In this document: positions 16,888 through 62,482 of the stretch, piece after piece
Position numbering within the stretch: the first letter of the stretch is position 1
Layout of the letters: every line of letters starts with the position of its first letter
DNA from: Candidatus Poribacteria bacterium
Lineage (GTDB): Bacteria; Poribacteria; WGA-4E; JAJDTR01
Direction: 5' to 3'
Length of the DNA stretch: 64,000 nt
NCBI GenBank assembly: GCA_965222225.1
Contig: CBDCTK010000002.1
Location: forward strand, 1,184,001-1,248,000
Position numbers and translations under genes: made by a program
The notes under the pieces: generated by a model
Database searches by the model: none
Told to the model about the DNA's origin: nothing
What the model saw: the letters and a program-made list of their open reading frames with translations, nothing else

Positions 16888-17028
16888 TGTGAAACCAACC
16901 ACCAATTGGCGAGAACCGGGTTTATACCATTTCCTTTGAATAATATTGCGTATGATGTTTTTCAAATATACTGTTATGAAAAGACCGATACCAACCATTA
17001 CCCAGCACACCAAATCCCGTAGGCGGGG

Positions 17029-17062
17029 ATCAAGCGAACGGATAGTGAGTGCGATAGAGATC
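17029..17062 (+). repeat. 34-bp variable-slot unit inside a GTAG-type hairpin
   Basis: ATCAA GC GA AC GGAT A GT GA GT GCGATAG AG ATC between GTAGGCGGGG and CCCCGC. Confidence 0.85.
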
Positions 17063-17342
17063 TTCTTGCCCCGCATTGGTAAGATTTGATTAACGCTATT
17101 AATGCACTTCAAATATAGAGAAATGGCATTAATAACCTAGAAAACCGTTACTAAATACGTGGCTTCCCGAATTGACATAGCGGGCTCAAGGCCTAGAGTT
17201 GCGATTTAATCCTAAGTTGCCCGGTATTTTTCATCAGACCTTCAAAGCCCAGTGTGTTGATAAATACGAAATGGCACTTCGGGGTTACAATCTCAGTCTT
17301 CCCTCGTTTCCCCTATGTACAAATTGAGCTAATAAGAGAGAA

Positions 17343-19900: not shown

Positions 19901-21149
19901 GGGACTTAGTAGTTAACTGCTTTTTGGTCGATTTGCTTGCTTTTCTCTTCTTAATGTACAATCATTTTAGACAGTGTTCGGAATCTTGATTCACACTAAA
20001 ATACATCTCTATAAGAGAGAAATGGAGGCATATCATGTTGACCAAGCGTTTGTACATGCTCGCGGGAGCATTGCGGGTTATCTGCGGGATTTTAATTTCC
20101 AACACTATGGGATTTTCAGCACACCATGATGTTGTCGTTGACAGAATATACCGATAGCCAAACAATTCATGTGGCTCAGGTGAAGCATTCATCAAAAAAT
20201 CTTATGAAAATCTCATCATCTTTTCTGCGATTATATTTCCAGCAAGACTCCATGATATACAGTGGCAGCCACTTCTTGCTGTAGTGATGATGCGTTCCGT
20301 AGAATGACCTCTTGACACAAGCCCAAAACGACTCGATGGTGTTGGTGTGAGTTACGCCGTCCTCAGAAACATATCTCTCTTGGTGATGGATAACATGTCT
20401 TTCGATATCTTCGTCCAGACTATTGTAAGAGCGAAATTCATCAGTCATAAGAATAGACTCATCGGGTGAGACATTGCTAAGGATGAATTCTCTGATATTT
20501 TCACCAGATAGAACCTTCATGAATTTAGCAACCACCCGACCGCCTCTCTCGACTACGCCGATGACGGGAGATTTATTTGTGCCTCTACCTCTCTTAGATT
20601 TTGCTCTGGGTTTGCCGCCGACATAGGTTTCGTCCGCTTCAACTATCCCTTTCAGCAATTCATCACTATCACTCATTTTCTCACGGAGGCGCATTGCCAT
20701 ATACCAAGCGGACTTTTGATTCATGTCCAAGTCACGAGCAAGCTGACAACTCGATATGCTTTTCTTGGCATTGGAAAGAATTGAGATAGCCAAAAACCAT
20801 TTCTGGAGAGGTATCTTGGTACCATGGAAGATGGTTCCTGCTGTAGCCGAAAAGCTAGATTCACAATCGTAGCAATTCCAACCAGTAGTAATGTCGTTTT
20901 TGTTCTTGCGTCCAACTTTTTCACTGCCACAGTGGATACAGCAAACACCGTCCTTCCAACGTTTTTCCTCTATAAATCTGAGACAAGATTCTTGATTTGG
21001 AAACTCTTTCATAAGATTCAAAATGTCCATAGCAAACTCCTACGAGAAGAATAGTCACTATGGACATCTACGTGTGACGAAAAGATTTACGACAGGGTAC
21101 CAAGTTTTATGTTTGTCGTCAGTCTAAAAGCTACAAGCTACTAATTCCG
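19901..21149 (-). mobile_element. IS1595-family insertion sequence, complete
   Basis: Imperfect 24-bp terminal IRs; 8-bp TSD AAACATTA at 19893-19900 and 21150-21157. Confidence 0.92.
20176..21030 (-). CDS. IS1595-family DDE transposase
   Basis: Zn ribbon CIHC..CYDC, HTH, VEADETYVGG, LMTDE, HTNTIESFW. Confidence 0.95.
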   Translation of the reverse strand: MDILNLMKEFPNQESCLRFIEEKRWKDGVCCIHCGSEKVGRKNKNDITTGWNCYDCESSFSATAGTIFHGTKIPLQKWFLAISILSNAKKSISSCQLARDLDMNQKSAWYMAMRLREKMSDSDELLKGIVEADETYVGGKPRAKSKRGRGTNKSPVIGVVERGGRVVAKFMKVLSGENIREFILSNVSPDESILMTDEFRSYNSLDEDIERHVIHHQERYVSEDGVTHTNTIESFWACVKRSFYGTHHHYSKKWLPLYIMESCWKYNRRKDDEIFIRFFDECFT

Positions 21150-21975: not shown

Positions 21976-23883
21976 GTGCAAACGACGAATGTTCAAGTAA
22001 ACTCCATGTTTGGTAATGATGTGCAGTACATAATTCCTCTTTTTCAGCGACACTACGTCTGGGGTCAGGCAGGACAGTGGACACCTTTGTGGAAGGATAT
22101 AAAGGACAAGGCTTACCATAGGCTGTCTGAATCTCAAAGAGATCAGTTCTCTCATTTTACGGGTGCTATCGTCATACAGCAAAAACAGACTAATGTGGAC
22201 GAAGTACAAAAATACGAAATTATTGACGGACAGCAGCGCCTAACAACCTTTCAGGTCATCCTTTGCGCTATCAGAGATGTATGCAATTCATGCGGATTTG
22301 AGAAAATTGGGGCGGAGGCAGTTCGACACATGCTAAATCAAGGAACACTGTTAGACAACTCAGACAGTGAGAAATACAAACTTCTCCCGACAGAGTTTGA
22401 TAGGGCTCCATTCATCTCATTGACTGATGGGCGTGTAGATGAGAGCAGCGGACGAATTTGTATAGCCTATAATTATTTTAAGAAAGAAATCGAAGATTAT
22501 GTGAACCGTGATAGGAACAAGACGCTTGCCCTGTTTCGCTCTATCTTAAACGACTTTGGTTTTGTCCAGATACTGCTTGATGCAGGGGACGAGCCCGAGA
22601 GAATTTTTGAATCGCTCAATGCAAGGGCTAAACCTCTACTTCAATTTGATTTGCTCAGGAACAATCTGTTTCTAAGGGCTCGAATTGAAGAAGGTAGAGA
22701 TAGGCTATATGAAGACTATTGGAAGCATTTCGAAAGTACGTACTGGGAAAAAGAAGTAACGGTTGGGAGAGAGAAGATGATGCTTTCTGAACGATTTTTC
22801 CAACACTATCTTATGGCAAGACTCGGTGAGGTGAGCGTTAGCCCACTGTTTAGTGTATATCAAGAACGGCTTGCACAAAACGAGGGAGTCGAACAAGAAC
22901 TGTCAGCGCTAAAACAATATTCAGAGATTTATCAAGAAATGACAGATTGCTCCCCTGATTCCGAAATTGGGCAGGCGATGTCATTTTACAATACCTTTGA
23001 TATTACCTCTTTGCACCCATTTATACTTTTCGCGATAAATGAGTTAAGAGTGTCTGGCTCAGATCTCTCCTTAGTTTTCCAGATTTTAGAGTCTTATACC
23101 ATGCGTCGTCTACTGTGTAACACATCAGGCGCTAAGAACTATAACAGACTCTTTTCTAAATTGATTCAGAGGCTGAAAGGAAGGCGTTTTGACGTGGGGC
23201 AATTCTTAAAGTTGCTATCTGATGAAAAGGCACACTCGAATTGGTGGCCGAGTAATCGTGAGGTTTCCAATACTATGTGCTGGATTACGGATACAAAGGC
23301 TAATCGTTACATTTTGTATCGGATTGAATTAAAGAAACGAGTAGAGAACCAATCGCTTGAAAGCAACGAGTTGGACTTTAACAACCCGCTGAGTTTAGAA
23401 CATATAATGCCCCAAAAATGGGAGAACACATGGTCTTTACCGCTGCTGGCGGATGGCGACCCTCCTGACTTGAATCCTCTGTATGATTGCAAGGAGAGAA
23501 TTCTTTACAAGAACTTATTTCATAATGAATACCGCGAGAATAACCCAGAATGGAAAACGAACCCGTTAGAGGAGGGATTGGCTGACGAATCGTACAAATC
23601 AGCACTGATGGTCGCAGGATTCAGACGTGAGGATTTACACCACTTTGGTAACCTAACGCTTGTCACAGGATCACTTAATTCCAGTCTGTCAAACAGACCA
23701 TTTTCTGAGAAGAAATCGGGGTTATTTCAAAACTCACTGCTGGTTTTGAACAGAGAAATTTGTGAGTACGATACCTGGGATATTCCGCAAATCGCACATC
23801 GTACGAGCGACTTGTGTAACTATTTCTACTCAATATGGCCATCTGCGGAGAGTTTTGCGGAAAGCATTGGAGAACCATTATAG
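21976..23883 (+). CDS. DUF262+DUF1524 GmrSD-like type IV restriction endonuclease
   Basis: IPLFQRHYVW, IIDGQQRLTT, IFESLNARAKPL, SLEHIMPQ, GNLTLV..SLNSSLSN. Confidence 0.9.
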   Translation: MQTTNVQVNSMFGNDVQYIIPLFQRHYVWGQAGQWTPLWKDIKDKAYHRLSESQRDQFSHFTGAIVIQQKQTNVDEVQKYEIIDGQQRLTTFQVILCAIRDVCNSCGFEKIGAEAVRHMLNQGTLLDNSDSEKYKLLPTEFDRAPFISLTDGRVDESSGRICIAYNYFKKEIEDYVNRDRNKTLALFRSILNDFGFVQILLDAGDEPERIFESLNARAKPLLQFDLLRNNLFLRARIEEGRDRLYEDYWKHFESTYWEKEVTVGREKMMLSERFFQHYLMARLGEVSVSPLFSVYQERLAQNEGVEQELSALKQYSEIYQEMTDCSPDSEIGQAMSFYNTFDITSLHPFILFAINELRVSGSDLSLVFQILESYTMRRLLCNTSGAKNYNRLFSKLIQRLKGRRFDVGQFLKLLSDEKAHSNWWPSNREVSNTMCWITDTKANRYILYRIELKKRVENQSLESNELDFNNPLSLEHIMPQKWENTWSLPLLADGDPPDLNPLYDCKERILYKNLFHNEYRENNPEWKTNPLEEGLADESYKSALMVAGFRREDLHHFGNLTLVTGSLNSSLSNRPFSEKKSGLFQNSLLVLNREICEYDTWDIPQIAHRTSDLCNYFYSIWPSAESFAESIGEPL

Positions 23884-25179: not shown

Positions 25180-25210
25180 CCTAAAAATCGAAGGCATAAG
25201 GAGAATAATC

Positions 25211-26664
25211 ATGGAGCAACTCGGCTATATCGCCCTCGGCTGTGTTCTGGTATTAGTCGTGCTGGGACTGCGGCGCGTGGACTGGTCGAATATCAGGTTG
25301 CCGACATTTGGGTGGGGTAAGTTGGCACCCAGAACGAAGAACTCACTGCTATTGAGTGTCGCGTTTCGCGCTGTGCTGGCGTTGATTGGTGCGTTATTCA
25401 TTGTTACGAAGGACATCGAACACGACGCTATCAACGTGGAATGGGTGAAGATACCGCGGACACCGCGGCGCCTAAAGACACCTGAAGTCAAACCTGTCCA
25501 ACCTCGAATTATACCGCCTCGTGATTTGGCGACGCATCGAGTAACGCCGACGGCAAAACCGGTCGATGCCAGTGGTCGAAAAGAGTATTGATTTATCGAT
25601 AGACGCTTCGGAGGCGAAGGTGGGTGATGTAAAGACTGAGACGAGACAAGCGACTAATCCGCGTGAGGTTACGCTTGCTCGGAGTGCCGGTGATACGGGT
25701 ACAGGGAGGAAGGGGACGATTACAGGGCGAGTCAATGCGCCGGCGGGGACGGGCTAGGGTGAGGGAAAAGGGCGATTGGGAAAAACAATGGTTGAATCAA
25801 CCGGGACGGCGGACTCGACGAGTTTGGAGGGAGGGGACTTTTCACATCTTGAATCAGTTCCTGATGACGAGCTCGGCACAATTCTCACGGGCGAAGGCAA
25901 GGACATCTCCGGCCATATTCGCATGATTCGTCTGAAACACTCGCTTTCGGACTGGTGGCAAGACCCGACGGCTCTTCCTAGCTTTATGAAGTGGCTTTCC
26001 GAGAACACCCGGGTTCGGGCGGATATGAAGTATAAGGGCGGGTCGCTTCGATTAACCGAGCCGGAGATTCAAGACGCTCCGTTGGTTTTCATGACCGGAC
26101 ACGACAAGGATATAACCGTCGGTCGCGGTCTGGCTAAAGACGGCCCCCCTATCGGACGGGTTTACCGCCGAGGAACGCGCAGCCCTGCGGAAGTATATCA
26201 TCGACCGCGACGGGCTGCTTTTCTTCGATGATTGCGGGTTCAACGGACTCTTTGCTCAACAAGTCGCCGTCGAGCTAGGCAAAGTCTTTCCGGAGTATCC
26301 GCTCAAGGATATTCCACATAACCATGAAATCTACAAATGTTACTACACTTTGCCGCGACCACCTCGAGGCGGCGACGTGTTTTGGAGTGCTCCGGGCGCA
26401 GCCCAAGGCACGGGAGGCGTCTATCGACCAATCTCGTCTAAGTTCGCGTACCAGAAAGGAATCTCGATTGGCAGCAGATTAGCCGTCGTCTATAACCGCA
26501 AAGATTACATGTGCTCGATGGAGACCGCGGAAGTCGATAGTCGTGCGAGACTTCGAGACAGGCGATCGCCCGACGTTCACCGATTCATGACCAACCTGTT
26601 GGTCTACGCCATGAAATACGGCGGCAACACCAACCGAACCAACTACCAATCACTTAGTCAATAA
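25211..26664 (+). pseudogene. DUF4159-domain membrane-anchored protein, copy 1 (disrupted)
   Basis: Aligns to 47124-48587; 26-bp deletion near 25567 between CGGTCGAT microhomologies, TAG at 25755, extra C near 26145. Confidence 0.85.
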
Positions 26665-27721: not shown

Positions 27722-27838
27722 TTCACGACCTTCTTGATGAAAGAAATCGGTCGATTCATCCTCATTTTTATACCGTCATTCTGCGTCGGCTAATTGTTGC
27801 CCGACGAATGGATGACGGTTTCACTTTGGAAATAGGGA

Positions 27839-27872
27839 ATCAACCGAGCGGATAGCGAGGGCGATAGTCATC
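27839..27872 (+). repeat. 34-bp variable-slot unit
   Basis: ATCAA CC GA GC GGAT A GC GA GG GCGATAG TC ATC. Confidence 0.85.
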
Positions 27873-27950
27873 CTTGAGCTGGTGACACAACGTGCGGCGG
27901 GAATACTGACAGGTCAAACTGCCAATCGCTTAGCCAATAAGGAGATACAA

Positions 27951-35687: not shown

Positions 35688-35788
35688 TATTGTGCCGTCT
35701 CCATTCGATTCATTCTGTCTCCAAAGAGACCTAAAACTACTGTCTACCGCAGAGGTGATAACTTGCGTTGTACTCTCCTCTCGACTTA

Positions 35789-36111
35789 GAGCCTGTTTGA
35801 ATAATCGGTGGCAAAGCCATTTTTGGTCATTTGTAGAAAGTTTTTTCATGTTTTCATTGTTGGCTGCTACATACCTGTCACTATTCTATCGCACTCACTA
35901 TTCGCTCCCTTGATCCCACGCTGGGGCTTTTAGAGGCTGGTAGGATTTCTATCGCGCTCCCTAGAAGATCTCTATCAGGATTTACTATCGCCTTCGCTAT
36001 TCGCTCAGTTGATCCCTCGCTGTTCACTCGGTTGATCGCAGGGGATCTCTATCGCAGTCATTTTTCATTCCTTTGATCGCACCCTACAAACTGTACTTTT
36101 CAAACAGGCTC
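35789..36111. mobile_element. MITE copy 1, IS5-family-like (IS1031-type ends), 323 bp
   Basis: 13-bp TIR GAGCCTGTTTGAA/TTCAAACAGGCTC; TTA duplicated (35786-35788, 36112-36114); sits at the stop codon of the porV-like gene. Confidence 0.9.
35881..36077 (-). repeat. Cluster of variable-slot units inside MITE 1 (3 full, several partial)
   Basis: Full units 35881-35914, 35979-36013, 36044-36077; partial 35944-35962, 36015-36036. Confidence 0.85.
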
Positions 36112-37200
36112 TTAGAACCGAAGCATTAACTCAAAAACATTTAACCGTTTTCCTTCGGGACCCCGCGGCACTTCTACAGCGTAGTCAAATTGGTAGTCAA
36201 GCAATCTCACACCTAGACCATACGTTAGATGGTCCGAAAAATTCAGCAAGTCTATCCCCGGTTCCGTTTTGTAACCAACGCGCAATGCAAGGAGATTACC
36301 AAGCCAATACTCGGCGCCGATACTTTTCCGTAGATGCCTCCATTCAAGGGCGCGAATGCCAACACCCCGATTCGAAAGCACATCACTACGCGTTTCGTCA
36401 GGAAAGTCAGCCAAGCGTCTTTCTATCTCCTCTTCATCCTCTGTCAATTTATGGATAGATGCCGTCAAATCTCCAATGAGGTTGACCCGATGATTCGTTT
36501 CTTCGTAGAGTACCACTGCCGTCCCCATCTTGAATTTGCGAGGAAGAGGGTCGCTCTGATTCTCATCTATGAAGTGCAGACGCGTGCCCCAGTTCTGGAG
36601 GGCAGCGCCAATCTTGACTGGCACAAATGCATTCAACAAATCGTACTGCAATCCGAAATCAACGGCGTAAGCGCCCCCGCTCTCCCGTCCTAACTTCTGT
36701 CTGATAATCTTGCCATTCATGCCAGCAGAAAGCCGATCTGTCACTTGGTCTGCGTATGAAAACGTCAATACCCAATTCGTCCCGAGGTTTTCCTCTCTAA
36801 TCGGATTGGGAGAATCTGTTGTCACCAAGATGGTTCCTTGTCCTTCAAGCTGAAGCGTCGCTCCAAGGATGCCGACATCGCTAATCGGCATAGCTCCGGC
36901 AAAAAATGCATAGTACAATCCTTCGCCAGCTTCGCCGAAAATGTCCCCTTGGTTTTTGTACGAAATAGCCACCTGTTTCTCTTGAATAATTCCCAATCCA
37001 CTGGGATTCCATAAAGCGCTAGTCACATCGCCATCAACAGCAGTGAAGGCATCGCCCAATGCTGTCGCACGCGTCCCGCCGCCGAGATCGAGAATTTGAG
37101 AGCCTTGGGTGCCCGGTCCCGCCAATCCTGATGGTGGAGGCGAGATTATCGCCACAACCAAGACTATGTTAATTGCCAATATTAGGTTTACTCGCTGCAT
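36112..37200 (-). CDS. PorV/PorQ-family outer-membrane beta-barrel
   Basis: Signal peptide, GTRATALGDAFTAV..D...LWNPSGL, SDPLP, GAEYW..LALRVGY, terminal F. Confidence 0.85.
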   Translation of the reverse strand: MQRVNLILAINIVLVVAIISPPPSGLAGPGTQGSQILDLGGGTRATALGDAFTAVDGDVTSALWNPSGLGIIQEKQVAISYKNQGDIFGEAGEGLYYAFFAGAMPISDVGILGATLQLEGQGTILVTTDSPNPIREENLGTNWVLTFSYADQVTDRLSAGMNGKIIRQKLGRESGGAYAVDFGLQYDLLNAFVPVKIGAALQNWGTRLHFIDENQSDPLPRKFKMGTAVVLYEETNHRVNLIGDLTASIHKLTEDEEEIERRLADFPDETRSDVLSNRGVGIRALEWRHLRKSIGAEYWLGNLLALRVGYKTEPGIDLLNFSDHLTYGLGVRLLDYQFDYAVEVPRGPEGKRLNVFELMLRF

Positions 37201-42639: not shown

Positions 42640-42986
42640 GGCACCTTCCCAACACCTATCCGCCGCGCCCTTCCGTGCCGTCGAAAACCGTATCTCCGTT
42701 TTCCGCTGTGCGAACTGAGGCATCTCCTGCATAATCGATCCGTTCGGGAGGATAGTAAGCCAGACTATCACCCCGACCCAACCTGATGGCGTTCTGGTAG
42801 AAGACGTACCGTTGAAAAATCATCATAGCGCGAAACAAACGCTATACACCCGCTACGGCGATTGGTTTCCAATCCTATGTCTGCTGGCAGGCCTCGTACT
42901 AATTGGTCATAGAGGAACCGAACGTGGATCCACTCCAAACTCAGGCGGTACACCTGAAGCATCACTGGATTCCCCACACACATGTA
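42640..42986 (+). pseudogene. Duplicated, inactivated 3' end of lnt
   Basis: Direct repeat of 41236-41580 with GGA>TGA and a 2-nt insertion. Confidence 0.9.
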
Positions 42987-43142
42987 GGAGCGATCTCCTG
43001 ATCGTGGACAAGTCAATTCGAGACCTGAAACTCTCCGATTTTACCTTCTCTTTTAGTTATTGAACCGGTCTCTAATCGTCCACTTGCAAGCGACGCCCTG
43101 CACCGTCTTTTTACAGAACACTTCCTTCAATACCAAGACGGA

Positions 43143-43176
43143 ATCAAGCGAACAGGCAGTGAATGCGATAGTGACT
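43143..43176 (+). repeat. 34-bp variable-slot unit
   Basis: ATCAA GC GA AC AGGC A GT GA AT GCGATAG TG ACT. Confidence 0.75.
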
Positions 43177-43559
43177 CCCGTGCGAGATTGTCAGTCTCTC
43201 ATCAACGATTAGTCTTGTCCTAATATTGACGAATTTGGGGAATCAAACATGTGTTCTGCGCTTTAGAAGGTATTACACAAACGTATCTCAATTCCCTCTC
43301 GTGTCAGGCGCAAGATACGGATGCGATTGCCGCATCCGGTACCCGAGAAAAAGTTGCGAAAACGGGGCGGCAATGTTAACATTCTATCAATGATTAACGT
43401 TTCAGAGTTTTCAGAGTAGGCGTGAGAAATATAGCTAGACAGAAAACGGCGAAAGTCCATGCCAGGACTGATGTCTCGGCGGTTTCACAAGACGGGTACT
43501 CGGAATGATACTCTGAAACGGGGGCGATTTTTAATGCTGGTTCTGGCGTAATACGGAGG

Positions 43560-45606: not shown

Positions 45607-45656
45607 ATGTGACGGCAAAGCGTAGTCATCCGAGGTGACAGTCGTACATAACCTAA

Positions 45657-45890
45657 GAGCCTGTTTGAATAATCGGTGGTAAAGCCATTTTTGGTCATTT
45701 GTAGAAAGTTTTTTCATGTTTTCATTGTTGGCTGCTACATACCTGTCACTATTCTATCGCACTCACTATTCGATCGCTTGATCCCACGCTGGGGCTTTTA
45801 GCGGCTGGTAGGATTTCTATGGGATTTCTATCGCACTCGTTATCCACTCGTTTGATCGCACCCTACAAACTGTACTTTTCAAACAGGCTC
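45657..45890. mobile_element. MITE copy 2 (same family as 35789-36111), 234 bp
   Basis: Same TIRs; TAA duplicated (45654-45656, 45891-45893); variable-slot units at 45749-45782 and 45823-45856. Confidence 0.9.
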
Positions 45891-46773
45891 TAAGAATGAG
45901 ACACAACTACAAGTTGGCGTGATTTGGTGCGTTGGAATAGCATTATCCTGAAGGATATCGTGGTAGCCGCTGAAACCTATGTCGGCGAGAGTCTCGCAAG
46001 CGGACCAGGCGACCTTACAACGAGAATAGCGAAGATAAACCTAAGCGTGGTAGTGGAAAGACGTACCTTCAGTCGCAGCCACAAGAGGTAACTAACATTC
46101 GGGTGATAAAACCATGAGCCACCGAAAAACCTATGCCAATGCCCCAAATGGTATGTGGTTGTTTCCGCAGAGTTCCTGCGAGACATATTAACCGAGTATT
46201 TGAATCATCCAGAATACGGCAAGGACTTCAGTATCCATCAGCACTGTTTCATGTGTGCCAATGATGACCGAACTGAATCCTATACTATAAGATGGCCTGA
46301 TAACACCTGAGAGCGGTCCTGAAGAATTGTTCGGGGACCTACCTCACCCAAACATGTTGAATGCCCTGTTTGTTGGATCGCGAGACGGCACTCTGACGAT
46401 TCCGTCGAGATTCTCAAACACCGACAACTAACAACAAACTGGGAAGACTGGGGGACCTTGCCCGCAGGGTAGAAGTAAAAGCTAATTGTCGGCGTGCAAG
46501 AGGCAATCTTACTAGCATAACTTCGACAAGAGAAGACTTCGGCGCGGGGCGGTTGACATTGCGACTCATGATGTGGATGATTTTAATGATGATGTAAAAG
46601 GCGTGCGTTCCCACTTGGCTAACCCCCTGTCCGCCTCCCGCATCGCCTTAGGAGCTACTCACTTAGGCCGATGCCCTTCCACAAGTGAGAAGGGGAGTTC
46701 AGCGAGGCGTGCATCGTCGTGGCTTTTGCAACTCCACTAAACGCAATAGAGATATGCAATACCTGGCGGCGTT

Positions 46774-47121
46774 ATGACAGTCGTACAGAGCCTAAAGATG
46801 AAATCCAAACTTCCCACTCTCCGCCTCGGCTACATTCTCGTGTGCTTGGCGGTTTCCATCGCTATTCCCATCCCGCCAACCGGCGCCTCACTCAAACACG
46901 CCGCGGTCGTCGGCTTCGAGTCCCCGCGCTCCTTGGCAGGGTTTCTAATACTGTGGTTTATTTTGAGCCAGCTAAACATCATTCCAAGAAGTTGGAACAG
47001 GACAAAAACGAATCCCCGGAAACGACTTCAGCTCATCGAACCCTTCGACAAAATGCGGCATTGGAATCCATCAGATCGTGTCTCACTCCAAATGAGCGCT
47101 GACGTGAACAAAGGAGAATAA
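46774..47121 (+). CDS. Small membrane protein
   Basis: Two hydrophobic segments; ends at the RBS of the next gene. Confidence 0.5.
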   Translation: MTVVQSLKMKSKLPTLRLGYILVCLAVSIAIPIPPTGASLKHAAVVGFESPRSLAGFLILWFILSQLNIIPRSWNRTKTNPRKRLQLIEPFDKMRHWNPSDRVSLQMSADVNKGE

Positions 47122-47123
47122 TC

Positions 47124-48587
47124 ATGGAGCAACTCGGATATATCGCCCTCGGCTGTGTTCTGATATTAGTCGTGCTGGGACTGCGGCGCGTGGACTGGTC
47201 GAAGATTAGGTTGCCGAAATTTGGACGGGCGGGTGTCGGCGTGGGCGCCAGAACGAAGAACTCGGTGCTATTGAGCATCGCGTTTCACGCTGTGCTGGCG
47301 TTGATTGGTGCGTTATTCATTGTTACGAAGGACATCGAACACGACGCTATCAACGTGGAGTGGGTGAAGATACCGCGGACACCGCGGCGCCTAAAGACAC
47401 CTGAAGTCAAACCTGTCCAACCCCGGATTATACCCCCTCGTAATCTGGCGACGCATCAAGCAACGCCGAATACAAAGCCGGTCGATGTGAAGGTGGCGGC
47501 GAGACGGTCGATTTCTCTGGTCGAAAGGAATTTTGATTTGTCCGTAGACACGAGCTAGGGGAGCGTGGGCGACATTGAAACCAAAGCTGAATTCGTCCCC
47601 AAGCCTCGCGAGATTACGCTGTCTTCACGTTCCGGGAAGGCCGGAACGGGTATGGTTACCGGAAGCGCCGACGCCCCCGGCAGAGGCAAAGGGAAAACTG
47701 CGGGCAGGGGCGGATTGGGCGCAACGATAGAATCGACGGGCACGGCGGATTCAGCCAGCCTAGAAGATTCCGACTTCACCCATCTGGAGACTGTACCTGA
47801 TGGCGAACTGGGCGCAATTCTCACGGGCGAGGGCAAGGACATATCCGGGCATATCCGGATGATACGATTGAAACATTCGCTTTCGGACTGGTGGCAGGAC
47901 CCGACGGCTATGCCTAGCTTTATGAAGTGGCTAAAGGATAATACGCGCATTCGGGCGGATATGAAATATAAGGGTGGATCACTTCGATTAACCGAGCCGG
48001 ATATTCAGGACGCCCCGCTAATCTTCATGACCGGGCACGACAAGGATATAACCGTGGGACGCGGACTCGCTAAAGACGGACCGTTATTGGACGGGTTTAG
48101 CACGGAAGAACGTGCAGCCTTGAGGAGATATATCGTAGAACGGGGCGGGATGCTTTTCTTTGACGATTGCGGTTTCAACGGACTCTTTGCCCAACAGGTC
48201 GCCCTCGAGCTCGGCAAAGTCTTTCCGGAGTATCCGCTCAAGGATATTCCGCACAACCACGAGATTTACAAACTCTATTACCAGCTCCCCCGGCCTCCCA
48301 CAGGGGGCGACGTGTTTTGGGCTGCTCCGGGCGCAGGCCAGCGCGCGGGAGGCGCCTATCGAGCTATCTCGTCGAAGTTCGCGTACCAGAAAGGCATCTC
48401 GATTGGCAGCAGATTATCCGTCGTCTATAACCGCAAAGATTACCTGTGCTCAATGGAGACCGCGGAAGTCGATAGTCGCGCTAGGCTGCGAGATAGGCGA
48501 TCGCCCGACGTTCACCGATTCATGACCAACCTCTTGGTCTATGCCATGAAATACGGCGGGAACACTGACAGGAGTAACTACCAATAG
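47124..48587 (+). pseudogene. DUF4159-domain membrane-anchored protein, copy 2 (single in-frame TAG)
   Basis: Continuous frame except TAG at 47556-47558 (GAG in copy 1); DWWQDP, FMTGH, GGMLFFDDC motifs. Confidence 0.8.
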
Positions 48588-48713
48588 CTTAGCCAATAAG
48601 GAGCTATCATGAACTTCACACAAAACTCCGTTACGCCACCCTCGGCATCGTAATCCCTTTGCCACGCTCGTCAGCAGATTTGTACTCTACGATCAAAAAA
48701 GTCCCACGACTCC

Positions 48714-48744
48714 GTAGGTTGGGTTGAGCACAGCGAAACCCAAC
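48714..48744 (+). repeat. GTAG-type REP-like hairpin ('empty' form)
   Basis: GTAG GTTGGGTT GAGCACAGCGA AACCCAAC. Confidence 0.75.
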
Positions 48745-48905
48745 TCCCCGCAAATTCACCCGAATATCTTCCATCCGGCTCCCCATTCAATCGCTCTCTT
48801 CCATTCTTCCGCCCTTCCCCTCCCCTTGCCACTTGCGATTAAGTCTGCTATACTATATCAACCACAGAAATGATCGCCACAAATCCTTATTGAAAAAATC
48901 GTCCT

Positions 48906-50180
48906 ATGCGCATCCAAAGACCCCGCTTCCCCTGCTCTCCACTCATCGCCGCCGCCATCGTTATCCTACTTACCATTGGCTTCACCGTTCCGTGCGCCCA
49001 CGCTTCGGGCCCGTGGGTCGAGGTTAAATCACCGGGCGAATTGGATGTCGGAATCATTCATTTTATCGATGCCGAAATCGGTTGGGCTGTGGGGTCAGAT
49101 TTTATACTCCGCACCGCAGATGGGGGACACAATTGGCACCGGCATGAAAGGCCTGACGACCTTCCTCGCTGGACGAAGGATTTTTCTTCTCCGACGACGG
49201 GATGGAGCCTAACCGAGTGGCGCCATCAGAATTCCCCCATGTTGCTTGAAGACATCGAGTTCATTCAAACTACCGATGGCGGCTTAACATGGCAACCAAA
49301 GCGCGGGAAGGTTACCGAGTTGGTTCTCATTGGAGATGAGACGCCTCACCCTGACCGACCCCTTGCGGACAACGTAAGGCTTAAACAAGTCGGAATCTAT
49401 TTTTTTGATGATCAGTTTGGGTGGATTGTCGGACCCACGGGCAATTGGGTCTGGCGCCACGACTGGCTTGGGGATCCGATCGGGAATTTATTAGCAGGCA
49501 ATTACCTATGTTCTACTCGTGACGGCGGCGAGTCGTGGAAGTGCCAGATTCATATCTATCTCTCGCGCAAACAAGGACACTTCAATATTGATGAATATTT
49601 GAGAATGCCCGAACATGTATATTTTCTCAATCCTCAGGTAGGGTGGATCGCGCCAGCCACCGGTTGGATGTATCACACAACGAATGACGGCACGGATTGG
49701 GAAGTGGTAGGTCACCCACTTGCGGGAGTCATGCCGGTCCTGCCCCGTGAGCGCTTTCTTACTAAACTCAAATTCGTTGATGAATCTCGCGGCTGGGCGG
49801 GCACTACATGGGCTGGCACTCCAGAAAGTGCATGGTTCACCGCAGACGGAGGACGGACATGGAGCATAAAATTTAGAGGCCTGAGTGGTGTCCTTTATGC
49901 CAACAAAGATGGTGTGTGGCTGCCAGGCTATAGGTGGTCTCCTACTGGCGAGACAATTCGAGGGATTTTCTATTCGGCGGATGATGGAGACACCTGGGAA
50001 CTGGAATGGGAAGGTCCCCAACGCATATATGTCATCGTATACAATGAAGCGACGCAATCCCTCTGGGCGGGCGGAGAAGGCATAATTCTTCATAAGAACT
50101 TGCAAACAGCCGTCGCGCCGCAAGGTAAACTGACTACTCTCTGGGGAAAACTCAAAGACGCTCCCGACTCCAACCCGTAG
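48906..50180 (+). CDS. Exported BNR/YCF48-like beta-propeller protein with C-terminal TxWGxLK motif
   Basis: Repeated F.D...GW and T.DGG.TW units; ends AVAPQGKLTTLWGKLK. Confidence 0.88.
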   Translation: MRIQRPRFPCSPLIAAAIVILLTIGFTVPCAHASGPWVEVKSPGELDVGIIHFIDAEIGWAVGSDFILRTADGGHNWHRHERPDDLPRWTKDFSSPTTGWSLTEWRHQNSPMLLEDIEFIQTTDGGLTWQPKRGKVTELVLIGDETPHPDRPLADNVRLKQVGIYFFDDQFGWIVGPTGNWVWRHDWLGDPIGNLLAGNYLCSTRDGGESWKCQIHIYLSRKQGHFNIDEYLRMPEHVYFLNPQVGWIAPATGWMYHTTNDGTDWEVVGHPLAGVMPVLPRERFLTKLKFVDESRGWAGTTWAGTPESAWFTADGGRTWSIKFRGLSGVLYANKDGVWLPGYRWSPTGETIRGIFYSADDGDTWELEWEGPQRIYVIVYNEATQSLWAGGEGIILHKNLQTAVAPQGKLTTLWGKLKDAPDSNP

Positions 50181-50244
50181 GTTAGGATCAAGCGACTGAT
50201 TAAGGAGCGCGATAGAAATCTCAGAGAGCACAGCGAAACCCAAC
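50177..50244 (+). repeat. Same REP as 48714 with a variable-slot unit (50187-50220) inside; partial unit at 50339-50361
   Basis: GTAGGTTAGG[ATCAA...ATC]TCAGA-GAGCACAGCGAAACCCAAC. Confidence 0.85.
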
Positions 50245-50552
50245 TTCATTGGGCTCCGCAGCATATCCATAGGGTGAGATTGGGTATCGTCTAATCCCCG
50301 ATTTCCGCCCCTACTGACCCTCATCCCCTGTAGGAGCGATCAACTGAATGGACAGTGAAGGATTTGTTGCGGTACTCACTGGGAAATAAAGACCGATCTC
50401 CCGAACGCTATTAGTGTACGAGATTCTTATCTCGCGCACAATCCCAACATGATTTTTCTAGTTGGATTACCCTGGCTTTTCGTCGATCTGGACACTTACC
50501 CTAGTGATTCACCCTATTGGCTGAGAGATGCACATGGACAAATCGCCATGGG

Positions 50553-52378: not shown

Positions 52379-53082
52379 CGGAATTAGTAGCTTGTAGCTT
52401 TTAGACTGACGACAAACATAAAACTTGGTACCCTGTCGTAAATCTTTTCGTCACACGTAGATGTCCATAGTGACTATTCTTCTCGTAGGAGTTTGCTATG
52501 GACATTTTGAATCTTATGAAAGAGTTTCCAAATCAAGAATCTTGTCTCAGATTTATAGAGGAAAAACGTTGGAAGGACGGTGTCTGCTGTATCCACTGTG
52601 GCAGTGAAAAAGTTGGACGCAAGAACAAAAACGACATTACTGCTGGTTGGAATTGCTACGATTGTGGATCTAGCTTTTCGGCTATAGCAGGAACAATCTT
52701 CCATGGTGCCAAGATACCTCTCCAGAAATGGTTTTTGGCTATCTCAATCCTTTCCAATGCCAAGAAAAGCATATCGAGTTGTCAGCTTGCTCGTGACTTG
52801 GACATGAATCAAAAGTCCGCTTGGTATATGGCAATGCGCCTCCGTGAGAAAATGAGTGATAGTGATGAATTGCTGAAAGGGATAGTTGAAGCGGACGAAA
52901 CCTATGTCGGCGGCAAACCCAGAGCAAAATCTAAGAGAGGTAGAGGCACAAATAAATCTCCCGTCATCGGAGTAGTCGAGAGAGGCGGTCGGGTGGTTGC
53001 TAAATTCATGAAGGTTCTATCTGGTGAAAATATCAGAGAATTCATCCTTAGCAATGTCTCACCCGATGAGTCTATTCTTATG
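52379..53082 (+). mobile_element. Truncated IS1595 copy (inverted relative to 19901-21149)
   Basis: Same left end and near-identical transposase 5' part (52498 onward); homology stops at ...ESILM; no right IR seen. Confidence 0.92.
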
Positions 53083-53103
53083 TTTGAAGTGAAAATAAGC
53101 CGT

Positions 53104-53391
53104 TCAGCTATCTCGACTTTTTTTTGAATACACTCTTTTTGCTACAACTCGAATCAGAATTGTAAGTGTCAATAAGATACCGAGTTCAATTAACCAAGCA
53201 GTAATGCCGTAAGTTGATATTAGAAACTCACCGACACCTACTCCGACCACGGCTGTTACTGATGCTATGACAACTAGGAAGGTGCCGTGCCGTTTCTGTG
53301 CTGCTCTTATCACTAATGGAGCAATAGCTACTAGCAAAATTATAGCTACTGCTGTTAGGATTGCAACGGTCATGGTAGCAATTTCTTTCAA
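53104..53391 (-). CDS. Small membrane protein (3 TM)
   Basis: Hydrophobic 95-aa ORF abutting the IS breakpoint. Confidence 0.6.
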   Translation of the reverse strand: MKEIATMTVAILTAVAIILLVAIAPLVIRAAQKRHGTFLVVIASVTAVVGVGVGEFLISTYGITAWLIELGILLTLTILIRVVAKRVYSKKSRDS

Positions 53392-55590: not shown

Positions 55591-55642
55591 GGATACCTCG
55601 TGTGTCGCGGGTGTGTTTGCCCTTGTATTCCGTTTGCATCCG

Positions 55643-55738
55643 ATTAAGCGAGTGGATAGCAATCAAGGGAACGGATAGTGACCGATCAACTGAGTGGATA
55701 ACGAAGGCGTTAGGGATCTTATAGCGACTGCGATAGAG
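55643..55738 (+). repeat. Head-to-tail array of partial and full variable-slot units
   Basis: Truncated units at 55643 and 55662, full unit 55685-55718, 3'-half unit 55721-55738. Confidence 0.8.
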
Positions 55739-56433: not shown

Positions 56434-56652
56434 GTAGGGTGCTATCAGTCGGCCGAATAGTGATTAGGATTTTCTATCCTAACCTATCCGCTCAGTTAAT
56501 CGATAGCGAACCCAACTCAATAGGAAATTCAGTCGATAGTTGTAGGTGCGCATTGCAATCAAACGACTGGACAGGGAGTAAGATTTCCTATCGCCTTCGC
56601 TCAGTTGATCGATAGAGTTCCCATAGAGATCCCACCAGCCTTTGAAAACCCT
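56434..56652. repeat. Mixed-orientation cluster of degenerate variable-slot units within GTAG repeats
   Basis: Units at 56444(+), about 56468-56500(-), 56558-56579(+), 56582-56609(-); flanks GTAGGGTGC and ACCAGCC match the MITE interior. Confidence 0.7.
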
Positions 56653-58997: not shown

Positions 58998-59187
58998 GCT
59001 ACTCCTTTGACGAGTTTCAGGATTTGATTATCACAATAGCGTTTTTTATAAGAAAACTTCGCGACAGAAAACCGACTTGTACCATTTCTCTAAAATTCAA
59101 GTGCATTGATTACAGTGGATCAAGTAAAGAAATCTGTGCGGAGAGAAGTAAGAAGCCGTATCTCCGCGCAAAGCAGGCGGGCAGGGG

Positions 59188-59221
59188 AATCTCTATCGCA
59201 CTCCCTGTTCGGTCATTTGAT
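59188..59221 (-). repeat. 34-bp variable-slot unit inside a GTAG hairpin downstream of katG
   Basis: Minus strand GTAGGGCAG...ATCAA AT GA CC GAAC A GG GA GT GCGATAG AG ATT...CTGCCC. Confidence 0.85.
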
Positions 59222-59248
59222 CGCTCCCACTGCCCTACCTCGCCGAAA

Positions 59249-61543
<2,295 letters not shown>

Positions 61544-62461: not shown

Positions 62462-62482
62462 GTAGGGTGGGCACTGCCCACC
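62462..62482 (+). repeat. GTAG-type REP-like palindrome
   Basis: GTAG GGTGGGCA C TGCCCACC. Confidence 0.75.

Follow-up and report, generated by a model that had tools for sequence, protein, structure and literature searches.

To our knowledge, REPs have a known transposase, and their movement has not been reconstituted. The "small dispersed repeats" of Nostocaceae (SDR1 to SDR8) are reportedly 21 to 27 nt long, and we know of no mechanism for their spread in cyanobacteria. Elements of the IS200/IS605 type insert precisely 3′ of a specific target of 4 to 5 nt and create no duplication. SDR5 inserts into the HIP1 octamer between its third and fourth bases (PMC4390886; SDRs are discussed also in PMC5861425). 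In REPs, a GT(A/G)G tetranucleotide is conserved on the 5′ side of the foot of the palindrome (PMC2817692, PMC3333891), single-stranded REPs are the substrate of TnpAREP, which requires GTAG (PMC3333891), and REP hairpins are preferred landing sites of insertion sequences (PMC1525189; ISPpu9, PMC12288879).

Here we analyze a repeat unit that interrupts REP-like hairpins in a 64,000-nt stretch of DNA from Candidatus Poribacteria, which we refer to as the window, and in further loci of this group. Judged by published descriptions, the unit appears to be closest to the SDRs. It is probably a non-autonomous mobile repeat of very small size that is found in Candidatus Poribacteria, a reading for which all of the evidence is comparative, and it appears to rank among the smallest mobile DNA elements described from bacteria. 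A literature search on repeats and mobile elements of Poribacteria returned nothing on these repeats; among the papers searched, a 12-mer of the unit is absent, and two 11-mers occur solely in unrelated papers.

RESULTS

Empty and filled copies of one hairpin in the window

The initial annotation had read 48714 to 48744 and 50177 to 50244 as one repeat, the second being 37 bp longer and carrying a unit, and this reading held (68 − 31 = 37). The empty copy (48714 to 48744, plus strand) is a 31-nt, GTAGG-headed REP-like hairpin, GTAGGTTGGGTTGAGCACAGCGAAACCCAAC, with the stem GTTGGGTT/AACCCAAC. The filled copy (50177 to 50244, plus strand) is 68 nt long, begins with GTAGGTT, and ends with the 19 nt GAGCACAGCGAAACCCAAC, identical in the empty copy. 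This 19-mer is present in exactly 2 copies in the window, compared with 0 in 100 shuffles, and the sequence CGACTCC upstream is likewise common to both hairpins. The left arm of the filled copy is shortened, with 42 nt that include the unit in place of 5 nt (GGGTT). In a 40-column frame the unit spans 50183 to 50222 (plus strand), with a 36-nt core at 50187 to 50222, and it was detected by nhmmer (E value of 2.8e-9) as well as by pattern match. As DNA, the empty copy (48710 to 48748) folds into a hairpin of −8.0 kcal/mol (z score of −2.7), and in the filled copy this host fold is lost (−3.0 kcal/mol; z score of +1.2). The TAG stop codon of the ORF at 48906 to 50180 falls within the GTAGG head of the filled copy. 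The same type of hairpin is also empty in loci L086 and L106 and filled in loci L026, L035, L126, L124, and L127.

Fold and covariation of the unit

Read on a single strand, the 36-nt core is ATCAA nn GA nn G-R-A-T-A nn GA nn GCGATAG AGATCYY. It folds as a short hairpin with two variable 2-bp helices, tandem G.A between them, a cap formed by a 5-nt loop, and an ATC/GAT closing helix. The four variable pairs make up a "barcode" that differs among copies with complementarity kept, and at least 43 different, internally complementary stem barcodes occur among the units. In a sample of 150 of the 194 distinct units from the matches listed, these pairs (10-26, 11-25, 14-22, and 15-21) were formed in 96.5% of cells versus 68.0% in shuffles, a value reached by 0 of 500 shuffles. 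Double-change cells numbered 186, against 35.5 in shuffles, and the covariation score was 0.967, against 0.370 in shuffles and at most 0.19 in slid controls. RNAalifold returned a fold identical to that deduced from covariation, and the RNA minimum-energy fold of the unit at 50183 to 50222 is the same. G.U or U.G occupied 87 of 600 cells and A.C or C.A only 7 of 600; since G.U is common and A.C is rare, one strand appears to be under selection. By nearest-neighbor energies the unit hairpin alone is marginal (−1 to −2.2 kcal/mol as DNA and −3.7 to −11.9 kcal/mol as RNA), and its energy z scores are not significant. An outer helix, GGGATC/GATCCC (positions 2 to 7 with 35 to 40), was dropped as a conserved feature, because only 72.6% of its cells are paired and it shows little covariation; this may be a point of difference from MITEs, which have terminal inverted repeats.

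The covariation and the G.U bias, which point to selection on one strand, would also suit a functional cis-element, that is, a protein-binding RNA or DNA hairpin that lacks mobility of its own, travels only as a passenger of REP- and MITE-like elements, and is shuffled by recombination between repeats, as in the mosaic BIMEs of enterobacteria. The loop, of the form G-N-R-N-A, could be read in the same direction, as we take this form to be a class of protein-binding RNA loops (a candidate likeness). We nevertheless regard this explanation as quite unlikely. No Rfam family matches the unit: there were 0 matches in the window at the gathering score, 20 loci searched at E values of up to 1 gave two weak matches to eukaryote- or virus-type RNAs far below their gathering scores, and no family was found for the 101- to 102-nt elements. 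Further observations on both sides are given below with the hosts, the genes, and the orthologous loci.

Other units and hosts in the window

A search with nhmmer identified 11 full units in the window, and every additional example named in the initial annotation (17020, 59.2 kb, 50330 compared with 42984, 56542, and the MITEs) was recovered. Hairpin family A, GTAGGCGGGG..CTTGCCCCGC (17019 to 17074, plus strand), contains a unit at 17025 to 17064 near its apex. An empty relative in locus L124 shares with this copy about 100 nt of flanking sequence on the 5′ side and 45 nt on the 3′ side, and 5 empty copies of the family occur in the sampled loci. The hairpin GTAGGGCAG..CTGCCC (59179 to 59238, minus strand), whose GTAGG head lies at 59238 on the minus strand, contains a unit at 59186 to 59225; the composite folds with −10.7 kcal/mol and is located immediately downstream of a catalase-peroxidase ORF (59249 to 61543). 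Loci L041 and L056 were considered as orthologs of the 17.0- and 59.2-kb sites and rejected; because their neighboring genes differ, they are taken instead as further copies of the dispersed composite element to which the window sites belong.

Family B, GTAGGAGCGATC.., is filled at 50330 to 50410 (plus strand), where a 57-nt insert (50342 to 50398) lies between two GATC sequences, with a half unit first and GATC last (partial nhmmer match at 50336 to 50360). It is empty at 42984 to 43009 (plus strand) and in about 20 copies in the sampled loci. An empty copy of family C (GTAGGGTGGGCACTGCCCACC) is located at 62462 to 62482 (plus strand), and its filled relatives are found in L012, L058, and L101. 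GTAGG heads are thus present at 48714, 50177, 17019, 42984, 50330, 62462, and 59238 (minus strand), and the REP-like hairpin copies of the window sit between ORFs.

Two MITE-like elements also contain units. The first (35785 to 36117, minus strand) includes units at 35879 to 35918, 35978 to 36017, and 36042 to 36081 together with partial units, and the second (45653 to 45896, minus strand) includes units at 45747 to 45786 and 45821 to 45860; CCCCAGCG.GGG followed by a unit is present in both (35.9 and 45.8 kb). The unit resembles MITEs in being non-autonomous, intergenic, and multicopy, and MITEs can carry it as a passenger; it differs from them in lacking a target duplication and in being several-fold smaller.

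The remaining units lie in other surroundings. One at 27835 to 27874 (plus strand; nhmmer and pattern match) is located in otherwise unique intergenic DNA, and the comparison with paralogous regions is uninformative there because homology begins only downstream of the unit. A degenerate unit is found at 43139 to 43178 (plus strand; nhmmer E value of 3.6e-8), an array of nested and partial units (55641 to 55738, plus strand) surrounds a full unit at 55681 to 55720, and an array of degenerate units in both orientations (56434 to 56625) has GTAGG heads at 56434 and 56542, with GTAGGTGCGCATTGCA and a half unit at the latter position.

Abundance and distribution

Loci labeled L are matches of a genome scan whose pattern fixed 17 bases and one purine position, and the "invariant" positions of the unit are therefore in part an effect of ascertainment. 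Of the 134 loci among the matches listed, 133 carry the unit, and these 133 come from 13 assemblies of Candidatus Poribacteria. The single match outside Poribacteria (L103, a Pseudomonas record) has stems that are not complementary and resembles a chance pattern match. The window and the 134 loci together contain at least 200 full units among the matches listed, and some of the records from which these derive, such as those of L001, L002, L011, and L053, are complete chromosomes. Chance similarity, low-complexity sequence, or an assembly artifact is an exceedingly improbable source of the unit, considering these copies in independent assemblies, a covariation far above that of the controls, and the 9 matches to a 29-nt degenerate unit pattern in the window compared with 0 in 100 shuffles. 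Maintenance of the unit across at least 13 assemblies would suit a functional cis-element as well.

Hosts and orientation

In at least 10 unrelated hosts the 36-nt unit is found with its ends unchanged, an observation that is difficult to reconcile with a cis-element shuffled by recombination between repeats. Forms with and without the unit occur for at least seven GTAGG-headed REP-like families, for MITE bodies, for one non-GTAG hairpin, and for the unit itself, and for families A to E as well as the family of the 48714 hairpin both empty and filled forms exist. Across the 267 kb sampled, these REP-like families have 5 to 25 copies each. Several families carry GTAGG heads, and stems can be read in families A to E; together with the fold of the 48714 hairpin, this gives the head and the imperfect palindrome of 20 to 40 nt, folding as a single strand, by which REPs are recognized. 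Composites of host and unit amplify as wholes, as seen for family A with its flanks and for the MITEs, and this behavior would be expected of a passenger cis-element.

Of 199 units among the matches listed, rule-based sorting assigned 58 to positions in or beside other units, 18 to MITE bodies, and 9 to the non-GTAG hairpin. A GTAGG ends 0 to 12 nt upstream of the core in 48 of these 199 units (24%), compared with a background rate of 1.3% of 17-nt windows; CCTAC, the opposite orientation, is upstream of the core in 0 of the 199. In GTAGG-headed hairpins the unit is situated a few bases before the apex, on the GTAGG strand. The claim that the unit interrupts GTAG REP-like hairpins was therefore correct in that both forms exist and too narrow in that such hairpins are one class of host.

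Orientation relative to genes was also considered. Among the matches listed, 21 units are sense and 12 antisense when only Pfam-supported genes are counted (P = 0.16), and the figures are 35 against 14 when crude ORFs are used. The somewhat greater number of sense copies would be in line with a cis-element, but the bias, about 2:1 with Pfam-supported genes, is not significant and an orientation bias is not established. No pattern relative to the replication arms was discernible in four chromosomes among the matches listed.

Junctions

Empty counterparts exist for 53 of the 199 units among the matches listed, which yields 43 junction types; most of these empty and filled pairs are paralogous members of a repeat family and not alleles. 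A host G immediately precedes the core in all 43 types. The number of host bases absent at the junction is 0 in 6 types, 1 in 11, 2 in 18, 3 in 5, and 4 in 3, with CG as the commonest lost string (12 of 43). No target duplication was seen in any of the 43 types, in agreement with the initial annotation. Its proposal of GATC/AAT microhomology at the junctions applies to some hosts (GGGGCATCTTG, GCGATCTCC) and not in general, the constant feature being the host G. The ends of the unit are constant throughout, the first bases being ATCAA.. and the last ..GATCYY.

The lack of target duplication and the small host losses (mode of 2 nt) are compatible with a cut-and-patch event. They could also arise if the unit were "written," as the initial annotation proposed, and not transposed: at a hairpin that stalls replication or is cleaved, a free 3′ end in G would pair by 1 to 2 bases with another unit copy or an RNA copy, copy about 36 nt, and return a few bases downstream. 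Such a repair patch or template switch would account for the variable loss of 0 to 4 host bases without duplication, for hosts that are hairpins and a unit that is itself one, and for the destruction of the host hairpin in the 50177 copy, a loss that speaks against a cis-element; the 43 barcodes would fit many possible donor lineages. We consider it unlikely, however. Untargeted switching should leave ragged ends, and the sharp ends observed in 43 of 43 junction types look more like ends defined by an enzyme than the products of untargeted repair. The orientation relative to GTAGG is strictly one-way (48 against 0 among the matches listed), the covariation would be unexplained unless the fold directed the switch, and a single template written out would not yield 43 barcodes. 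No observation pointed to primer extension or reverse transcription, and no reverse transcriptase (RT) domain was found in 51 ORFs of the window and 176 ORFs of the loci (227 in total).

Self-nesting and recent change

Among 25 nested pairs of units, the insertion point in the outer unit follows position 27 in 19 cases and position 21 in 6. The inner barcode is unlike the outer barcode in 24 of the 25 pairs, which indicates that nested units are not local duplications; nesting at fixed positions with unlike barcodes likewise argues against a shuffled cis-element.

Comparison of sister genomes at the level of single units was carried out for two pairs of loci. In orthologous loci L068 and L053, whose flanks are about 95% alike and whose source records show about 89% likeness, one nested unit is present in one and absent from the other. 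This is the empty orthologous allele whose detection had been suggested as a check, and a difference of one unit in otherwise retained surroundings is not what a cis-element would predict. In L025 and L034, also orthologous, several units differ. A search for gaps in BLAST alignments, aimed at additional empty sites in orthologous positions, gave few pairs, with three sister-genome locus pairs in the sample. Sister loci L079 and L080 contain larger unit-bearing inserts at sites that are empty in the window, L080 holding a relative of the 35785 MITE-like element, and the intergenic DNA there is too diverged for the junctions to be placed. Among the three tandem 330-nt repeats of L064, 5 of the 36 unit positions vary, each of them in the barcode or loop and with complementarity kept, and the flanks differ at few positions only.

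DISCUSSION

Our results are best explained by a mobile unit, and this unit shares many properties with SDRs. Both are very short and noncoding, are embedded in other repeats or small transposons, and are nested in themselves; both keep a secondary structure by compensatory changes, differ between close genomes, and enter a short sequence of the host at an exact position. The unit differs from SDRs in its length (36 to 40 nt versus 21 to 27 nt), in its phylum, in having GTAGG-headed REP-like hairpins and not HIP1 as hosts, and in taking the place of 1 to 2 host bases. We rejected the possibility that the unit interrupts a HIP-like palindromic octamer in the way that SDR5 interrupts HIP1: GGGATCCC occurs once in the window, where no palindromic octamer is enriched.

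The host hairpins, in turn, resemble REPs and BIMEs: they consist of a GT(A/G)G head and a palindrome (PMC2817692, PMC3333891), their structure is kept by complementary changes and they form mosaic elements (PMC2817692, PMC3333891, PMC3116915), and their stems are close to those of Coxiella, Haemophilus, and Xanthomonas REPs (PMC2817692). Such a closeness of Poribacteria stems to those of Gammaproteobacteria is itself unexpected. REPs are served by a single-strand-specific, hairpin-reading enzyme in the account of PMC3333891. The initial statement that GTAG REPs are substrates of RAYT is in keeping with that account of TnpAREP and with the REP architecture, matched by the host hairpins, in PMC2817692. 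The unit itself is no REP, since the GTAG head is near 24% of units and belongs to the host, and it lies inside one REP palindrome, whereas the BIME linker sits between two REPs. In contrast to the insertion sequences that target REPs, which are full elements with their own transposase, the unit encodes nothing.

With IS200/IS605 elements, as characterized partly in PMC3333891, the unit shares strand specificity, hairpin-defined ends, and the lack of target duplication, and in both systems mobilization in trans would be open to every copy whose hairpin is intact. The unit has one hairpin instead of two, a target consisting only of G, and a loss of 1 to 4 host bases in 37 of 43 junction types; at 36 nt, it is also much smaller than the known derivatives of these elements. 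Such losses and so weak a target are not the outcome of IS200/IS605-type transposition.

For a mobile unit, a pathway can be proposed in which the fold of the unit would be read as single-stranded DNA, during copying, by an enzyme supplied in trans. Preferred targets may be extruded or single-stranded hairpins. Copies of the unit are located directly 3′ of a host G, in place of about 1 to 2 host bases and without target duplication, and mostly in sequence that is able to form hairpins: GTAGG hairpins, hairpins of MITE-like elements, a non-GTAG family that also flanks an IS200-type Y1 gene, and two fixed positions of the unit itself; composites of host and unit then spread further as wholes. 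A further possibility, which we put forward tentatively, is an undescribed way of moving DNA: a 36-nt, structure-coded element without terminal repeats or target duplication, aimed at extruded hairpins (REPs, MITE hairpins, and its own fold), that replaces 1 to 2 bases 3′ of a G and is active as many barcoded lineages in parallel.

If this were so, the unit would be the first element akin to SDRs outside Nostocaceae, and it would offer a route to the long-missing enzyme of such elements, since there are now complete chromosomes of Poribacteria that have, and others that lack, particular insertions. The signature of the unit (sharp ends, a constant G in the host, about 2 host bases lost, fixed points of self-insertion, and a four-pair barcode that marks lineages) makes the mechanism testable. 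Units and the REP-like hairpins that they break, found after stop codons and between genes, could otherwise pass for regulatory RNA or CRISPR-like repeats.

An HUH/Y1-type transposase is the likeliest candidate for the enzyme, although it too is a tentative one. In the 227 ORFs of the window and loci no RAYT was found beside a unit, no RT domain was found as described above, and the 51 window ORFs contained no Y1 domain. The sole Y1 gene among the 176 locus ORFs is a Y1_Tnp gene in L010 (E value of 7.7e-28), which scores as IS200 (78.7 bits; cutoff of 55) and not as a REP-associated transposase (38.7 bits; cutoff of 80). This gene is flanked on both sides by inverted non-GTAG hairpins of a type that hosts units.

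An interrupted REP-like hairpin

The GTAGG-headed, REP-like hairpin at window positions 48714 to 48744 (31 nt) is present a second time, in interrupted form, at positions 50177 to 50244 (68 nt). The longer stretch has the GTAGGTT start and the last 19 nt of the 31-nt hairpin and carries 42 nt in place of 5 nt of the left arm, including the unit, a 36-nt core repeat (40-column frame) that starts with ATCAA and ends with GATCYY. The window has two occurrences of the common 19-mer; 100 shuffles gave none. As single-stranded DNA, the short copy folds well (-8.0 kcal/mol, z -2.7); in the long copy the host hairpin is gone (-3.0 kcal/mol, z +1.2). The initial annotation had taken the two copies for an empty and a filled site, and this pair, like all of its further filled and empty examples, was found in place. 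The copies flank a BNR/Ycf48-like ORF (48906-50180), the stop codon of which lies within the GTAGG of the second copy (TAG at 50178-50180). REP-like heads occur at or right behind stop codons at 50178-50180 and at 59238-59249, where the GTAGG head lies ~8 nt past the end of a katG-like ORF.

Unit copies and their hosts

Repeat finding and a profile built on window coordinates gave 24 unit matches on the two strands of the window, including 11 at full length. A degenerate 29-nt unit pattern, which matched 9 of the window units and nothing in 100 shuffles, was run once on a species-representative genome collection and retrieved at least 134 loci (designated L001 onward, with locus-relative coordinates). 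Among those listed, 133 are in 13 assemblies named Candidatus Poribacteria; the lone locus in a Pseudomonas record is without complementary stems and was rejected as a chance match. The genome of the window is absent among the matches listed, in which its nearest relatives are L079 and L080 (80-90% identity over 29.6-34.1 kb). A search of the loci and the window with nhmmer gave 245 hits and 200 full units, 199 with complete flanks and 194 distinct in sequence, a sample skewed to copies that match the scan pattern.

The hairpin type at 48714 is also empty in L086 and L106, and is filled at window 50177 and in L026, L035, L126, L124, and L127. At least seven GTAGG families were seen both empty and filled in the sampled DNA. 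In a three-way alignment, the filled copies at 17.0 kb of the window and in L041 share a 5' flank of ~100 nt and a 3' flank of 45 nt with the empty copy in L124. These hosts are built like REPs, with a GT(A/G)G head and a palindrome. Their stems resemble REPs that PMC2817692 lists for Coxiella, Haemophilus, and Xanthomonas, and those at window 48714, 62462, and 42984 and in the loci are near-identical to Coxiella, Haemophilus, and Xanthomonas/Pseudomonas REPs given there. That paper proposes that RAYT/REP systems arose within the Gammaproteobacteria. According to PMC3333891, TnpAREP binds the REP of Escherichia coli in single-stranded form, depends on GTAG and on a mismatch in the stem, and cleaves nearby at C^T.

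A GTAGG ends 0 to 12 nt upstream of the core in 48 of 199 units, against a background of 1.3% of 17-nt windows, and never in the opposite orientation relative to the unit. Association with GTAG hairpins, as initially proposed, holds for part of the units, and other hosts exist as well: by rule-based sorting, 58 units lie in or adjoin another unit, 48 have a GTAGG head within 12 nt, 18 are in MITE bodies, 9 are in a non-GTAG hairpin, and 66 have other contexts, among them degenerate heads, other hairpins, antisense units, and unique sequence.

Elements of a constant 101-102 nt are bounded by the head GTAGGTTGGGT and the tail GAAACCCAAC of the hairpin type at 48714; they are found in L058 (240-, 914-, 1257-), L059 (1289-), L067 (23+), L094 (227-), L017 (1172+), L026 (275+, 508-), L035 (898+), L046 (1132-), L087 (287-, 514-), and L097 (272-). 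Their ~70-nt interiors are very unlike across loci and genomes, and Rfam gave no match for them.

A strand-specific fold

Column pairs 10/26, 11/25, 14/22, and 15/21 of the unit stand out by mutual information. In 150 of the 194 distinct units, 96.5% of the cells of these pairs are paired, versus 68.0% across 500 shuffles, none of which attains the observed value, with 186 double-change cells against 35.5 in the control and a covariation score of 0.967 against 0.370, falling to 0.19 or less when partners are slid by 1 to 3 columns. RNAalifold returned the identical fold plus three invariant closing pairs. An invariant GA facing GA separates the two variable helices, and the loop is G-R-A-T-A. 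Many of these "invariant" bases were preset by the scan pattern, which left the covarying bases free. The hairpin is marginal by energy calculation, so that the evidence for it is covariation rather than stability. G.U or U.G occupies 87 of 600 cells and A.C or C.A only 7 of 600, so that the unit is a strand-specific hairpin whose fold is under selection on the ATCAA strand alone. Support was lacking for an outer helix of GGGATC with GATCCC (72.6% paired). Rfam contained no family matching the unit.

Junctions

Under the criterion that the host restart exactly past unit position 40, at least one empty counterpart, mostly paralogous, was found for 53 of 199 units, making 43 junction types. The host base right before the core is G in all 43. 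Missing host bases number 0 (6 types), 1 (11), 2 (18), 3 (5), or 4 (3), and CG is the most frequent lost string (12 types). No target duplication was found in any of the 43, in agreement with the initial annotation.

Self-nesting and turnover

Twenty-five nested pairs are strictly recognizable, in which a complete unit lies within an outer unit after position 27 (19 pairs) or 21 (6 pairs) and the outer halves still match one another. The barcodes (the four variable stem pairs) of inner and outer unit are unlike in 24 of 25 pairs, with a chance identity of 0.06; the nested units are thus insertions from elsewhere, and local duplication is ruled out as their source. Antisense units also hold inserted units. 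Across 199 units there are 43 distinct 5' barcodes.

Unit-level comparison of orthologous loci covers two sister-genome pairs. L068 and L053, with flanks ~95% alike, are set apart by a single unit lying inside another unit, the kind of empty allele for which a check had been proposed. L025 and L034 (flanks 92-95% alike) have unit arrays that are unlike by several units, and L079 and L080 hold larger inserts with units where the window is empty. Both the self-nesting and the single-unit difference make it unlikely that the unit is a purely functional cis-element, passively carried. Its orientation relative to genes has no significant bias (21 against 12, p 0.16). Three tandem 330-nt repeats in L064 (863-1876) each have a hairpin of GTAGG family A and a unit; 5 of the 36 positions of one unit are changed, each of them in the barcode or the loop, with complementarity kept, while the flanks are near-identical, which suggests exchange of a unit at a fixed site.

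L068 and L053 also differ by a MITE of ~160 nt; an element of that length with a family-B GTAGG hairpin lies at about 1180-1340 of L068 and is absent at the orthologous place. Another MITE-like element has two window copies (35785-36117 and 45653-45896, 89-97% alike) and one in a sister genome (L080 940-1160); the latter lies between the genes for an M14 peptidase and EPSP synthase, a place at which the window lacks the element.

Possible mechanism and known counterparts

A trans-acting enzyme would recognize the unit hairpin in single-stranded DNA. Such an enzyme fits the sharp ends, strand-specific fold, hairpin hosts, lack of duplication, many lineages, single orientation to the REP head, and recent change. 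HUH/Y1 transposases are the known class that reads hairpins in single-stranded DNA. Speaking against this class, Y1 transposition is precise, behind a 4-5-nt target, whereas at unit sites G alone is constant and 1 to 4 host bases are lost. These small losses are better explained by a repair patch or template switch that writes the unit into its host, as the initial annotation had it. We nevertheless consider this doubtful, since it accounts less well for sharp ends and fixed orientation, and a reverse transcriptase, for which a search had been advised, was absent from 227 ORFs sampled from the window and loci.

An IS200-type Y1 gene lies among these repeats in L010 (175-699), flanked by inverted copies of a unit-hosting hairpin type (140-230 and 740-820). 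On each side are two inverted hairpins CGCTCCAGnGGAGCG adjoining ATGTC; this type also makes small elements elsewhere and hosts units. The CGCTCCAGnGGAGCG hairpins and the L010 gene may be another REP-like system, served by a transposase of its own.

Among known elements, the unit comes closest to the small dispersed repeats of Nostocaceae. As described, these likewise nest in other repeats and in themselves, maintain their structure by compensation, and are placed precisely in a short host sequence; the unit differs in size, phylum, host sequences, and loss of host bases. No published account of these repeats in Poribacteria or of the unit sequence was found in the literature.

Other features of the window

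A complete IS1595-family transposase gene (20176-21030, minus strand) adjoins a GmrSD-type restriction endonuclease gene (21976-23883, plus strand); a truncated IS1595-family gene is at 52498-53127 (plus strand). A cluster of small ORFs and a DUF4159 protein gene is duplicated at 25198-26449 and 47111-48384 (79-94% identity), and a 73-nt segment comprising a ribosome-binding site and small-ORF start occurs three times (26619, 27895, and 48554).
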